Source: Patescibacteria group bacterium (GTDB lineage: Bacteria > Patescibacteriota > Dojkabacteria > J137). From it: DNA of 64,000 nt. The stretch covers positions 452,885-516,884 of the forward strand of contig CAUJCN010000002.1 of assembly GCA_963169855.1 (NCBI GenBank), given 5' to 3'. The notes below the pieces were generated by a model, which had not been told where the DNA came from, did no database searches, and worked only from the letters and a program-made list of their open reading frames with translations. The number at the start of each line of letters is the position of its first letter. Within the stretch, counting starts at the first letter, position 1. Of this stretch, positions 5,373 to 42,069 are shown in pieces. The position numbers were made by a program, and so were the translations under genes.

Positions 5373-5510
5373 TTATAACACGAAGTGTTTCATCAATCGA
5401 AAGAATTGGTCAAAATTGATATAACACGAAGTGTTTCATCAATCGAAAAATCGGTCAAAATTGATATAACACGAAGTGTTTCATCAATTCCAAAAAATGC
5501 TCAACATTTT
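5373..5510. repeat. Three tandem copies of a 45-46 bp unit, each carrying an imperfect 25-bp palindrome TGATATAACAC-GAA-GTGTTTCATCA. They lie in the rnj upstream region.
   Basis: The direct repeats ataacacgaagtgtttcatcaatcgaaa(g)aat(t/c)ggtcaaaattgat begin at 5375, 5421 and 5466, with 2-4 mismatches. Each has the core palindrome AACAC-GAA-GTGTT. Confidence 0.8.
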
Positions 5511-28389: not shown

Positions 28390-28662
28390 TTATTTAACCA
28401 TGTCTCTGAACTGCTTTCCAGGTCTGAATCTTGGAACGCTTTTTGCAGGAACCTTAACAGGAGCTCCTGTCTTTGGGTTTCTCTTTGTACTAGCCTTTCT
28501 TTTTACAGCAAGGAAAGTTCCAAAGTTAGTTAATGTAATAGCGTCTCCGCTAGATACTGTTTTTGTAACACCTTCAATAAGTGCATCTAAAACTGTAGTA
28601 ACATCTTTTTTTGTCATTCCAGTCTTATTTGCAACCCAGTTTACTAAATCTGCTTTATTCAT
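28390..28662 (-). CDS. hup: DNA-binding protein HU (HU/IHF family)
   Basis: 90 aa. MNKADLV...GDAITLTNFGTF...RNPKTGAPVKVPAKSVPRFRPGK is the canonical HU arm-and-body signature. Confidence 0.85.
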   Translation of the reverse strand: MNKADLVNWVANKTGMTKKDVTTVLDALIEGVTKTVSSGDAITLTNFGTFLAVKRKASTKRNPKTGAPVKVPAKSVPRFRPGKQFRDMVK

Positions 28663-30732: not shown

Positions 30733-32007
30733 ATGCCAACAATTACAGAATTACCAAAGAAAAGTATTACAACAGAGATTCCGCAGAAAAAATCAAAGAT
30801 AGTTCAGAATGTGACTTTCTTTGGAGATTCAGCAATTCCAGAAGGTGATGCGATTTATAATTCAGTTTTTGATGCAGCGAAATTGCTTGCAACAAATGGA
30901 TATACAATTGTAGATGGAGGCGGCCCTGGAATTATGAAAGCAGCAACAGATGGAGCGGAATCAGTAAATGGCAATACTGTTGCGGTTTACTGGGAACCAA
31001 AATTAGCAGCTTTTTTTGAAGGGAAGAATCTAGCAAACCTTGCCGATAAATCGTTAGCAGAATCTAACTATGTGATGAGAACTTTTGGTTTAATAGAACA
31101 GGGAGATGTTTTCGTTGTGTGCAAAGGGGGAACAGGAACAATTTCCGAATTTGGATTAGTTTGGTGTTTAGGAAAACTATATTACGGATGCCACAAGCCT
31201 GTAATTTTATATGGAGATTTTTGGGACGAATTGATTGCCGCATTTCAGAAAACTATGTATATAGATGATGTCGAAATGGCTGTATTGCATAGAGCAAAAA
31301 CGCCAGAAGAATTAGCTGAGTTAATAGAGTCTTTCGAAACAGTATTCGCACACTGCGTTACTGTCGATAACAGAGCTTCAGACGAATTGGCATTCATTAT
31401 AAATGCAAGGAGAGACAAAACTGCAGAAAGTTACGACAAATTTGCATCAGAATATCATGCTTCAAGAATTGGAACACTGCCTTCTCAAACACAGTTGGAT
31501 GAATTCATTGAGCTAGTTCATTCCCCAGCTAGAGTCTTGGATATTGGTAGCGGAACCGGTCAAGACATTGCTTATCTTTCTCAAAAATATTCTACTGATG
31601 GATTAGAAATATCTAAGCGAATGGTTGAGATTTCTAAACTTGAAAGTCCTCACAGCAATATTGTTCAAGGTGATTTAGTAACTAAAGATATCGGTACAAA
31701 TAAATACAAAGGAATTTGGAGTAGAGATGCTATTCATCATATTCACGAAGAAGAATTAGACAATGTTTTCAAAAAGATTTCTAACGCACTTGTGGAAGGT
31801 GGAATCTTCTACTGCTTGGTTAGAGAAGGTGAAGGTGAAATCGTGGAGAATGAGGATAAAGGATATGGAAAAATGGAACGTTTCTATCATTTATTTTCAT
31901 CTGCAGAATTAATCGAGAGAGCAGAGAAGGCAGGGTTAGAATTAGTAAAGTTAGATAGAAACAAAAGAAGTCACATGTGGTTGATTGGAGTCTTCAGAAA
32001 AAAGTAA
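30733..32007 (+). CDS. Fusion protein. The N-terminal LOG-family (TIGR00730-like) Rossmann domain is joined to a C-terminal class I SAM-dependent methyltransferase.
   Basis: LOG motifs VDGGGPGIMKAATDGA and VCKGGTGTISEFGLVW. The methyltransferase motif I VLDIGSGTGQDIAYL and a post-I acidic region follow later. The gene lies 3 nt downstream of the epimerase-like gene. Confidence 0.55.
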   Translation: MPTITELPKKSITTEIPQKKSKIVQNVTFFGDSAIPEGDAIYNSVFDAAKLLATNGYTIVDGGGPGIMKAATDGAESVNGNTVAVYWEPKLAAFFEGKNLANLADKSLAESNYVMRTFGLIEQGDVFVVCKGGTGTISEFGLVWCLGKLYYGCHKPVILYGDFWDELIAAFQKTMYIDDVEMAVLHRAKTPEELAELIESFETVFAHCVTVDNRASDELAFIINARRDKTAESYDKFASEYHASRIGTLPSQTQLDEFIELVHSPARVLDIGSGTGQDIAYLSQKYSTDGLEISKRMVEISKLESPHSNIVQGDLVTKDIGTNKYKGIWSRDAIHHIHEEELDNVFKKISNALVEGGIFYCLVREGEGEIVENEDKGYGKMERFYHLFSSAELIERAEKAGLELVKLDRNKRSHMWLIGVFRKK

Positions 32008-32049
32008 TTTTCCTCAATTAATTTTAAGCATTAAAAAACCCGCCATTGG

Positions 32050-32076
32050 CGGGTTAAAGAATTAAAAAAAGTGAAA
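32050..32076 (-). terminator. Rho-independent terminator of the histone-like gene, a GC-rich hairpin (AACCCGCC-ATT-GGCGGGTT) followed by a T6 run on the minus strand
   Basis: A perfect 8-bp stem lies immediately 3' of the stop codon at 32077-32079. An A-run on the + strand corresponds to the T-run on the - strand. Confidence 0.6.
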
Positions 32077-32250
32077 TTACTTTCTCTTTTTTGCTGCTGA
32101 TTTTTTAGCAGGTTTCTTAGCAACTTTTTTAGCTGCTTTCTTTACAACTCTTTTAGCAACTGACTTCTTTGCAACTTTCTTTTTTGCAACAGTCTTTCTT
32201 GCTACTTTCTTTGTTGCTTTTTTAGCAACTTTTTTCTTGGCAACTGCCAT
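32077..32250 (-). CDS. Small lysine/alanine-rich histone-H1-like (Hc1/AlgP-like) basic protein, 57 aa
   Basis: Hand translation: MAVAKKKVAKKATKKVARKTVAKKKVAKKSVAKRVVKKAAKKVAKKPAKKSAAKKRK. It was missed by the ORF track (<60 aa). Its own terminator lies adjacent. Confidence 0.5.
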   Translation of the reverse strand: MAVAKKKVAKKATKKVARKTVAKKKVAKKSVAKRVVKKAAKKVAKKPAKKSAAKKRK

Positions 32251-32309
32251 AGGTAGGTAACTTAAAAAATAAAAATAGTTATCTTGGTTATATTCTGAGA
32301 TAATTTGAG

Positions 32310-33284
32310 ATGAATGTCAAGTATTTGATAAAATCGAAAACCTCATCTATGAAGAATACTGATAAAAAACAAGATATAATCAAAAAACTCCAAGACATTT
32401 TTGGAGACGGAAAGGCCGAGCAGATAATCAAAAGCATTACTTTCAACAAGCCAAAAACTTTTAGAATTAATCGTTTAAAATTCACTGCTAATGATGATTT
32501 AAACGAGATAAAATCTCACATTAAAAATGCAGATTTTTCTGATAGTTTTATTTCGAGCGAAGAAATTCAAATTTCAAAAACAAAATTAAATGGTGATAAG
32601 AAAATTTACATTCAAGAATTAGCAAGTATGATTCCTGTTGTTGTTTTAAATCCAAAAACTGAAGAGAATATTCTTGATATGTGTGCATCGCCTGGAAGTA
32701 AGACTTCAATGATTCAATCTCTTACAAACAATAAAGCCAATGTAACTGCTGTGGAAAAAAGTTTAGGAAGATTTTACAAACTGAAAGAAATTGTAACTGA
32801 TCAAGGTTGTGAAAATGTAAAGTTCATTCATTCAGATGCAAATTATTTAATTAAAAAATTTCCTGACTTTGCAAATTCATTTGATAAAGTAATGTTAGAT
32901 GCACCTTGTTCTAACGAAGGTGGAATAGTGTTGAGCGAGCCTTCAACATATAAATATTGGAGCTTAAAAGAAGGCAAGCAAATCAGCAAATTGCAGAAAG
33001 GACTCTTAAACAGTGCTGGAAAATTAGTGAAACCCAGAGGCGAAATTATCTATTCTACCTGTACTTTTAGTGTAGAAGAAAACGAGGAAGTTGTGGATTG
33101 GTTTTTACGTAGAAATCCGAATTTCCAACTCGAAGCAATAGATTTAAAGATAGAAAATGCACAGGAGGGAATTACTAAATATAAAGACAAATGCTTCGAT
33201 TCGACTGTCAGCAAGACTCTTCGAATAATTCCCAATGAAAGATTTAAAGGTTTTTTTGTAGCACGCCTAAAACGCTTACAGTAA
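32310..33284 (+). CDS. rRNA (cytosine-C5)-methyltransferase, NOL1/NOP2/Sun (RsmB/RsmF) family
   Basis: Motifs DMCASPGSKT (SAM binding), DAPCSNEGG (the motif IV catalytic Cys) and YSTCT (the motif VI Cys). Confidence 0.75.
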   Translation: MNVKYLIKSKTSSMKNTDKKQDIIKKLQDIFGDGKAEQIIKSITFNKPKTFRINRLKFTANDDLNEIKSHIKNADFSDSFISSEEIQISKTKLNGDKKIYIQELASMIPVVVLNPKTEENILDMCASPGSKTSMIQSLTNNKANVTAVEKSLGRFYKLKEIVTDQGCENVKFIHSDANYLIKKFPDFANSFDKVMLDAPCSNEGGIVLSEPSTYKYWSLKEGKQISKLQKGLLNSAGKLVKPRGEIIYSTCTFSVEENEEVVDWFLRRNPNFQLEAIDLKIENAQEGITKYKDKCFDSTVSKTLRIIPNERFKGFFVARLKRLQ

Positions 33285-40854: not shown

Positions 40855-41967
40855 TCATTTAACTTCTGTTACTGCGTTTACTTGTTTGGATTGTGGAGCA
40901 TTACTTTGAATTGCCTGTACAAACCTATTTTCATCTCTTTGTCCAATTAGTTTCACAATATTGTTCATCCCCATGAATTGTTGATAGAAACCCTGCAAAG
41001 TCTTAATCACTTTCAGTTCAGTTTCATTGTTAATAACTTTGCCAATTCCATAAATCTTTAGTTCGTCAGGTGTAATTGGATGTGAATGAGAGTGGTGTTT
41101 TGTTGTAAATTCTTCAACGGCAACGTTAATAAGTTGTTGATCTTTACCCTTCATAGAGAAGTTTTCTAAAGCGTGTTTAATTTGATCTTTAGAGTACCTT
41201 AGTGCCCCTACATAACTACCTAGTAGGTACGGGTCCAAGTTTTCCTCAAACTTCTTTTTTAGTGTTGTTAGCGCCAGTGTGTTAGCTGTAGTTGTCTCAT
41301 CTACTGTTCCGTATGATTGAATGAAGTCTTCAATTGAAGTAGCTGGGATTCTCAACCCTGGATTTGTAGGACTCTGTATAATAGGATCAACCGGTCCTAA
41401 TTCTGATAAACTTGTAAAGTAAATTTCATCTCCGTTTAGAGCTAGTAGCGTCGCAGCACTTTTCGCCATCATCGGTACAATTACTTCATACGTTTCAGCA
41501 TAATGACGAAGAATCGTAGAAAACTTTACTGAAGCCTCTAATATACCTCCTCCACTGTGTAAGAACAAGGTCAATTTTTTGAATTTTTTACCATTGTCCC
41601 CTTTATTAATAGGAATCAGTTTAAACAGCAAATCATCTAAAAAAATACAATCATTTTGATCCAACATGCTAAATGGAGAACCTGGAATAGAAATGTATGA
41701 TATTACATCCCCATAGTAATCTTCCAGTTGAACCACAGCTTCCCTATTACTTATTTCGAAACCTTTAGACAACAACTCAAGATCTTGCTGATAACTATCA
41801 TTTCCTCTATATTCTTCAAAACTTTTTGTCTCGATCTGGTATGTTGAATTACGAGGACTTTGTTCTGCAGATAGTTTACCTTCACGAATCAGTTTTCTAA
41901 TGAAGTGGGGCGTCACTTTAAGACGTTCTGCAGCTTGGGTAACGGAAATAAATTTAGTCTCTTTCAT
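40855..41967 (-). CDS. Fusion of an N-terminal excisionase/MerR-type HTH with a ClpP-fold serine peptidase domain (S49/SDH-like)
   Basis: HTH ISVTQAAERLKVTPHFIRKLIREGKL. The peptidase region LFLHSGGGILEASVKFSTILRHY...MAKSAATLLALNGDEIYFTSLSELGPVDP matches the LHSPGG...SA.T..AL..DEI pattern of the SDH/SppA family. Confidence 0.5.
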   Translation of the reverse strand: MKETKFISVTQAAERLKVTPHFIRKLIREGKLSAEQSPRNSTYQIETKSFEEYRGNDSYQQDLELLSKGFEISNREAVVQLEDYYGDVISYISIPGSPFSMLDQNDCIFLDDLLFKLIPINKGDNGKKFKKLTLFLHSGGGILEASVKFSTILRHYAETYEVIVPMMAKSAATLLALNGDEIYFTSLSELGPVDPIIQSPTNPGLRIPATSIEDFIQSYGTVDETTTANTLALTTLKKKFEENLDPYLLGSYVGALRYSKDQIKHALENFSMKGKDQQLINVAVEEFTTKHHSHSHPITPDELKIYGIGKVINNETELKVIKTLQGFYQQFMGMNNIVKLIGQRDENRFVQAIQSNAPQSKQVNAVTEVK

Positions 41968-41996
41968 GAGTTAATAATTAATAAATATTGTACGCT

Positions 41997-42069
41997 CAGT
42001 TACGAGCAGTTACCATATTCTATCAGAGGCAAAAATTTATGTCAAATTTTAACGTAACTACGCGTAACC
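41997..42069. promoter_or_regulatory. Operator-like array of two GTTAC copies (41999, 42009) and two GTAAC copies (42053, 42064), with 10-11 bp phasing, upstream of the HTH-peptidase gene
   Basis: cagTTACgagcagTTACc ... acGTAACtacgcGTAACc, seen directly in the 104-bp intergenic region. Confidence 0.35.

Follow-up and report, generated by a model that had tools for sequence, protein, structure and literature searches.

The 64-kb stretch of DNA analysed here (the window; GC content ~35%) carries on its minus strand a small gene of 57 codons, which lies between a convergently oriented gene for a SLOG/LOG-like methyltransferase fusion and a divergently oriented gene for an RNA methyltransferase of the RsmB/F family (Table 1). 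The translation of the small ORF is identical to the 57-aa sequence quoted in a first-pass annotation of this DNA, which had regarded the gene as unannotated. This is true only under the 60-aa cutoff of its reader; on 9 public contigs the ORF for the identical 57-aa product had already been called as a gene. The identical contig occurs in the samples ERR10655381, ERR10655379 and ERR10655370. The flanks of 300 bp that had also been assigned to the gene are wrong: 69 nt separate it from the convergent stop codon at 32007, and on the promoter side the distance is either 59 nt or 98 nt, depending on whether the RsmB/F gene starts at 32310 or at 32349. Both the ORF list and the public gene calls start the RsmB/F-like ORF at ATG 32310 (324 aa), and its orthologues (311-315 aa) align from ATG 32349, which is probably the true start of the gene. 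A call from 32310 would overlap the -35 box of the small gene. The convergent neighbour (30733-32007) encodes an unusual 424-aa fusion of a SLOG/LOG-like part (“lysine decarboxylase”-like, LDcluster4) and a class I SAM methyltransferase.

Table 1. Features at the locus (positions in the window) and orthologues of the small gene at related loci (L numbers).
Feature	Position	Strand	Details
Small gene, CDS	32077..32250	minus	57 aa + stop; MAVAKKKVAKKATKKVARKTVAKKKVAKKSVAKRVVKKAAKKVAKKPAKKSAAKKRK; ORF listing and translation
-35 box of small gene	32315..32320	minus	TTGACA; promoter scan
-10 box of small gene	32292..32297	minus	CAGAAT, exactly 17 nt past -35 box; promoter scan
Leader, -10 box to ATG	32251..32291	minus	41 nt, A/U-rich; U-rich motif TATTTTTATTTTTTAA at 32262-32277
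Intrinsic terminator	32033..32055	minus	AACCCGCC-AAT-GGCGGGTT + T-run; ~-13 kcal/mol
Divergent neighbour, RsmB/F-family RNA m5C methyltransferase	32310..33284	plus	Pfam PF01189, 6.7e-45
Convergent neighbour, SLOG/LOG-like + class I SAM methyltransferase fusion	30733..32007	plus	PF18306, PF03641, PF13489
HU (Bac_DNA_binding) gene, context only, outside the unit	28390..28662	minus	PF00216 on identical public contig
Orthologue, L005			58 aa
Orthologue, L023			59 aa
Orthologue, L029			70 aa
Orthologue, L026			57 aa
Orthologue, L008			52 aa
Orthologue, L004			61 aa; identical in L006 and L028
Orthologue, L030			58 aa
Orthologue, L019			43 aa
Orthologue, L025			51 aa
Orthologue, L024			46 aa
Orthologue, L031			38 aa
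Orthologue, L009			36 aa, apparently truncated by +1 shift in A9 run

The HU gene that had been noted at 28390 is real, as confirmed by its PF00216 match and its translation. It has its own promoter (TTGACT-N17-TAATAT) and its own terminator, and the encoded HU is without a KPAA/PAKK-type tail (translation of 28390-28662). Elsewhere in the window a 45-nt tandem repeat (2.7 copies, 94% identity) occupies positions 5374-5496, and an Rfam scan of the whole window at gathering thresholds returned no match.

The closest relatives of the neighbouring genes were found in MAGs labelled Candidatus Dojkabacteria (WS6, candidate phyla radiation) and in one labelled Saccharibacteria, and an identical copy of the RsmB-like protein is encoded on an 818-kb contig. 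The locus with the label “Candidatus Saccharibacteria” (L005, CAZYSE010000004.1) is the closest relative, its neighbours being 84% and 68% identical; the label is probably wrong, because the next relatives are all labelled Dojkabacteria.

The product of the small gene has a mass of 6.2 kDa and a net charge of +28. It is composed of 25 K, 14 A, 9 V, 3 R, 2 T, 2 S, 1 P and 1 M, i.e., 44% Lys, 25% Ala and 16% Val with a single Pro among the 57 residues (2%), and D, E, F, W, Y, H and C are all absent. K and R together make up a fraction of 0.49 (0.74 with A), and no other ORF of 25 aa or more in the 64-kb window exceeds a K+R fraction of 0.36, the next-highest value. The whole protein is of low complexity: basic doublets recur every 4-5 residues (autocorrelation), and the CDS consists at the DNA level of degenerate 12- and 15-nt repeats, equal to units of 4-5 aa. 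AlphaFold2, run on the single sequence, predicted one uninterrupted helix (residues 2-56, pLDDT 87). Neither a signal peptide nor a hydrophobic segment was detected in the protein, the hydrophobic moment of which is ~0.04 at 100 degrees; S/TPKK motifs do not occur in it and KKPAKK occurs once.

Orthologues and transcription signals

Orthologues were gathered by neighbour-based retrieval, which yielded 12 further distinct Dojkabacteria-like loci (13 with the window). Each has a small K/R/A-rich ORF (36-70 aa) in the same strand orientation with respect to the neighbouring genes. Common to them are an N-terminus of the type MAV(A)K(K/R)K and a C-terminal K(K/R)K, and (R/K)KPAA(K/R)K motifs are present, with 1-4 KPA(A/K) units in each orthologue. 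The family is essentially without acidic or aromatic residues (D/E = 0 in the six orthologues analysed), and its net charge ranges from +15 to +29. Mean column identity is ~50% within this single clade; the differences in length represent gain or loss of repeats, and through them the charge and the near-absence of acidic residues are kept. At the locus with the shortest orthologue (L009:3840-4025, minus strand), removal of one A from the A9 run gives a K-rich ORF of ~53 aa; an error of assembly, decay to a pseudogene or a site of slippage could account for the frameshift.

The small gene adjoins RsmB/F in 12 of the 13 loci and is divergent in 11 of the 13 (it is not in divergent position at L024 and L031). 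At L023 it stays beside RsmB/F though the other neighbour moves. The SLOG/LOG-SAM-methyltransferase fusion is syntenic in most loci, and throughout the clade it stays next to Rpe and the small gene. At every readable locus with an RsmB orthologue of ~43% identity or more, the small gene was found. No such ORF was detected within ~1.5 kb on either side of RsmB at a WWE3 locus (L027), nor within ~8-10 kb of RsmB in a Patescibacteria lineage of 42% GC (L032). Judged from these loci, the family is lineage-wide.

Upstream of the small gene a perfect TTGACA occurs in all 13 distinct loci. The spacer that follows is exactly 17 nt long in every orthologous locus and unconserved in sequence, and the -10 box reads CAGAAT, CACACT or CACAAT across loci, i.e., CA(G/C)A(A/C)T. 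When both strands of the window were scanned, TTGACA-N17-CA[GC]A[AC]T was found once. The -10 box of the small gene (CAGAAT or CACACT) is no strong consensus match, and for this reason the suggestion of the first-pass annotation that the gene is highly expressed is not established; high expression seems plausible. Elsewhere in the window there is one other promoter-like site of the form TTGACA-N17-nAnnnT (TTGACA-17-TAGAAT; 41968-42045, minus strand). It precedes a 370-aa ORF (40855-41967), whose leader has both a hairpin and an AU-rich stretch ahead of the ATG and is similar in style to the leader of the small gene.

The distance from the -10 box to the ATG is 31-45 nt among the orthologues, and all of their leaders contain a TTTTATTT(T/A)TTA-like run. 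We infer a transcription start ~7 nt past the -10 box, which would give a transcribed leader of ~34 nt, and the U-rich motif within it may have an enhancer role. A Shine-Dalgarno sequence was found neither in the window leader nor in those of the orthologous loci, which is normal for this genome because only 3 of the 40 long ORFs in the window (at least 150 aa) have one. In addition, hexamers resembling a -10 box cluster 5-8 nt before the ATG in 14 of 48 window ORFs (~30%), which suggests that leaderless mRNAs are widespread in the source genome.

An 8-bp GC hairpin with a T6 run had been reported to follow the gene directly. Both the hairpin and the T-run are present (stem 32055-32048/32044-37 with 8 pairs, 6 of them G-C; 3-nt loop; T6 at 32038-32033), but they begin 21 nt past the stop codon and not directly behind it. 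With a GC-rich hairpin followed at once by a U-run, past the stop codon and on the coding strand, the locus has the arrangement of a Rho-independent terminator. In 11 of the 13 distinct loci (window counted) a GC hairpin with T5-8 lies 37-61 nt past the stop; the orthologous hairpins have energies of -8.8 to -16 kcal/mol and their stem sequences vary between loci, so that the terminator is conserved as a structure and not as a sequence. The terminators at L004, L008, L019, L024, L025, L026, L029 and L030 are mostly symmetric (A-run, hairpin, T-run), and the symmetric terminator of most relatives could serve the two convergent genes alike. The window has a T-run solely on the minus-strand side, which leaves the SLOG-methyltransferase gene without an obvious terminator. 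The earlier proposal of an independent transcription unit agrees with the conserved promoter and terminator that the small gene has to itself; as read from these signals, the gene is an autonomous monocistronic cassette of promoter, leader, CDS and terminator.

Coding status of the reading frame

The ORF is almost certainly a real protein-coding gene. It is more than a chance ORF because it is conserved in 13 distinct loci under purifying selection. Between the window and L005, the method NG86 gave dN 0.092, dS 0.92 and omega 0.10; there are 15 synonymous and 10 non-synonymous codon differences, and codon position 3 accounts for 19 of the 32 differing nucleotides. The median omega over all alignable pairs is 0.21 (low-complexity sequences such as these align ambiguously). 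All indels among the orthologues are in frame, the codon choice matches that of the genome (GCA/GCT, GTT and AGA preferred), and AAG is somewhat enriched in the CDS, holding A-runs to at most 6.

That the ORF is non-coding, whether it arose by chance in A-rich DNA, represents a small RNA or is the complement of a functional antisense frame, is extremely improbable and already largely refuted. It might be favoured by the antisense +1 frame, which is stop-free over 61 codons, and by the nature of the ORF sequence as low-complexity tandem repeat DNA. In the antisense frame, however, the first ATG, GTG or TTG comes only 7 codons before the end and dN/dS is higher, and promoter and T-run alike have the orientation that a minus-strand gene requires. 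The positions of ATG and stop, the in-frame indels and the low dN/dS favour the sense frame, which has the lowest omega and the highest amino acid identity of the six frames, and a small RNA finds no counterpart in an Rfam match. An antisense gene was rejected: its open frame is the compositional mirror of the A-rich sense strand, without a usable start codon. The other possibility raised in the first-pass annotation, that the region is the 3' UTR of an upstream gene, was likewise rejected, as no same-strand upstream gene exists (the neighbour upstream being encoded on the opposite strand) and the promoter has been conserved; an autonomous monocistronic cassette is not a 3' UTR.

Relation to H1-like and tail proteins

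When the 57-aa protein was used as a phmmer query, no match at E<=1e-3 was found among 5.8 billion clustered proteins (at E<=10, two unrelated ORFs with K/A-rich ends appeared), and 0 matches were found among 1.84 billion representatives. There was no match in PHROGs, and 0 chains of the PDB matched at E<=10, a null result that is weakened by the bias filtering of HMMER. In an exact-sequence cluster look-up the protein was not in the collection, though the gene-position index has it. The null results of HMMER arise because its bias correction cancels low-complexity scores, and they are not evidence of absent relatives; as such searches are uninformative on low-complexity sequence, the phyletic breadth of the family is known via synteny alone.

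The resemblance to H1-like proteins seen at first pass (Hc1/Hc2, BpH1, AlgP tails and the H1 C-terminal domain) holds for composition, but all profile scores are below their cut-offs. The only Pfam family giving any match was Hc2 (PF07382), with 15.6 bits against a cut-off of 40. Among eight other orthologues tested, six matched this family with 14-23 bits at shifting profile positions and two did not match; the shifting positions indicate compositional similarity, not homology. The NCBIfam models for Hc2 (NF038052) and for the H1-like proteins of Burkholderiales (NF038053) scored 8.1 against a cut-off of 135 and 8.5 bits against a cut-off of 80, respectively. No Pfam match was obtained to Hc1/HctA (PF07432, E<=0.1) or to the winged-helix globular domain of linker histones H1/H5 (PF00538), and the protein matches none of the HU or ribosomal protein models of Pfam and NCBIfam. 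It may therefore be called H1 tail-like in its chemistry and appears to be no demonstrable member of a curated H1-like family. It does correspond to stand-alone H1-CTD-like proteins in being small, basic and wholly of K/A-rich low complexity, a class that is defined by composition and not by homology.

Measured against the eukaryotic H1/H5 tail, the protein is similar in K (44%) and A (25%) but not in P (2%), in V (16%, unusually high) or in S/TPKK motifs, which are absent; proline is typical of H1 and AlgP tails and rare in the window protein. The H1-like proteins of Bordetella and other Burkholderiales (BpH1) are also bacterial and Lys/Ala-rich, but proteins of the BpH1 type have ~180-200 aa compared with 57 aa here. 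In trypanosomatids and Toxoplasma, H1-like proteins that lack a globular domain and amount to the C-terminal domain alone are associated with chromatin; TgH1-like has 91 aa (PMC9769792). They are likewise small stand-alone Lys/Ala-rich polycations without a folded domain, and the same mode of action, a disordered-to-helical transition with non-specific DNA binding, would be expected of both (PMC9769792). In contrast to TgH1-like, the 57-aa protein is bacterial (and thus has no nucleosomes to bind), shorter, Val-rich, Pro-poor and without S/TPKK phosphorylation motifs.

Chlamydial Hc2 (HctB) is described as a protein of 165-237 aa with many lysine-rich pentamer repeats, and it shares with the small-gene family Lys/Ala-rich tandem repeats of 4-5 residues and variation in length through repeat number (PMC2848022). 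The window protein is ~1/4 of the size of Hc2, the family spans 36-70 aa, and the phylum is unrelated. KPAA-repeat peptides and AlgP's C-terminal domain bind DNA (PMC9239181), and the KPAA/PAKK tails of AlgP, PhaF, mycobacterial HupB (Hlp) and Ku are reported to bind DNA electrostatically (PMC9239181, PMC3553676). The small-gene orthologues resemble these tails in their (R/K)KPAA(K/R)K units. In AlgP, PhaF, HupB and Ku, however, the tails are appendages of folded domains (AlgP and PhaF combine an N-terminal helical or phasin domain with a long KPAA tail), whereas the 57-aa protein has no N-terminal domain and the tail is the entire protein.

Function and significance of the small basic protein

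The composition of the 57-aa protein points strongly to binding of polyanions in general, which we consider very probable. That it is a stand-alone, abundant polycation that coats or condenses DNA non-specifically and acts beside HU is a roughly even proposition; this role supposes that DNA is the principal target, that it is compacted and that the gene is highly expressed. By analogy with the H1 C-terminal domain, the free peptide would be disordered through charge repulsion and would form a long helix on a polyanion, its Lys and Arg side chains neutralising the backbone phosphates; at a charge of +28, the predicted helix is stable only when neutralised. Its binding to nucleic acid would be independent of sequence, and in abundance the peptide would condense or bridge DNA, as a functional counterpart to the C-terminal domain of histone H1 and to the KPAA/PAKK tails of bacteria that works alongside HU in a small-genome organism. 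Charge is conserved in the family but sequence and length are not, so that non-specific electrostatic binding fits better than a specific docking site; the pattern does not seem to fit a sequence-specific or stoichiometric structural role. On chemical grounds, an H1-like nucleoid protein would be a reasonable interpretation. Counting against it, the same chemistry would bind RNA, ribosomes or polyphosphate as well, and the conserved neighbour of the gene encodes an rRNA methyltransferase.

Unlikely, in our view, is an RNA- or ribosome-associated basic protein that neutralises rRNA charge, be it a ribosomal protein specific to the lineage, a chaperone of assembly or an accessory factor that binds rRNA. 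The ribosomes of the clade are known to be atypical, late-discovered ribosomal proteins are typically small and extremely basic, and the small gene is head-to-head with the RsmB/F rRNA methyltransferase in 11 of the 13 loci, an association kept at L023; TgH1-like also associates with the nucleolus and with ribosomal proteins (PMC9769792). Yet ribosomal proteins are conserved in sequence and length, whereas this family varies from 36 to 70 aa at ~50% identity, and neither a ribosomal model of Pfam or NCBIfam (bTHX, bS21, bS22, bL34-37 etc.) nor a PDB entry is matched. Moreover, synteny among close relatives is weak functional evidence, and the gene is non-divergent at L024 and L031. Quite improbable is a general counter-ion or tether of polyanions, e.g., on polyphosphate granules or as a link between granule and nucleoid like AlgP/PhaF. 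The (R/K)KPAA(K/R)K motifs of the orthologues resemble the KPAA repeats of AlgP/PhaF, and in AlgP the C-terminal domain is localised at polyphosphate granules (PMC9239181), but the N-terminal domain of AlgP/PhaF is absent, the window protein has a single KKPAKK, and no polyphosphate or PHA genes were noted in the neighbourhood of the small gene.

An exported or cell-penetrating polycationic peptide directed against a host or competitors would suit the life of CPR bacteria as episymbionts, and the 57-aa protein is small, cationic and predicted to be helical. Such a role is very improbable: the protein has no signal peptide or hydrophobic segment, with +28 over 57 residues it is far more highly charged than typical antimicrobial peptides, and transporter or immunity genes are not adjacent.

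Bacterial Lys/Ala-rich polycations resembling H1 tails have been known for decades, so that the presence of one in Dojkabacteria is no conceptual surprise, and the small gene is a new lineage-specific example of them. A literature search for H1-like or nucleoid proteins in Patescibacteria, CPR bacteria and Dojkabacteria found nothing relevant; the kind of protein is familiar and is not yet described in the Dojkabacteria-like group. HMMER-based pipelines miss Lys/Ala-rich polycations completely, and such genes are therefore systematically under-annotated; whether the protein belongs to chromatin or to the ribosome, the family is invisible to profile-based annotation. In CPR bacteria (Patescibacteria) the cells are tiny, the genomes reduced and recognised nucleoid proteins few, and a conserved, autonomously transcribed polycation is a candidate for a second architectural protein beside HU. 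It is unlikely that the protein is the principal chromatin or counter-ion protein in Dojkabacteria (and perhaps in other ultra-small CPR bacteria) or a previously unseen lineage-specific component of the ribosome. If the former were true, it would represent a free-living bacterial H1 C-terminal domain and would bear on the proposed eubacterial origin of the linker-histone tail.
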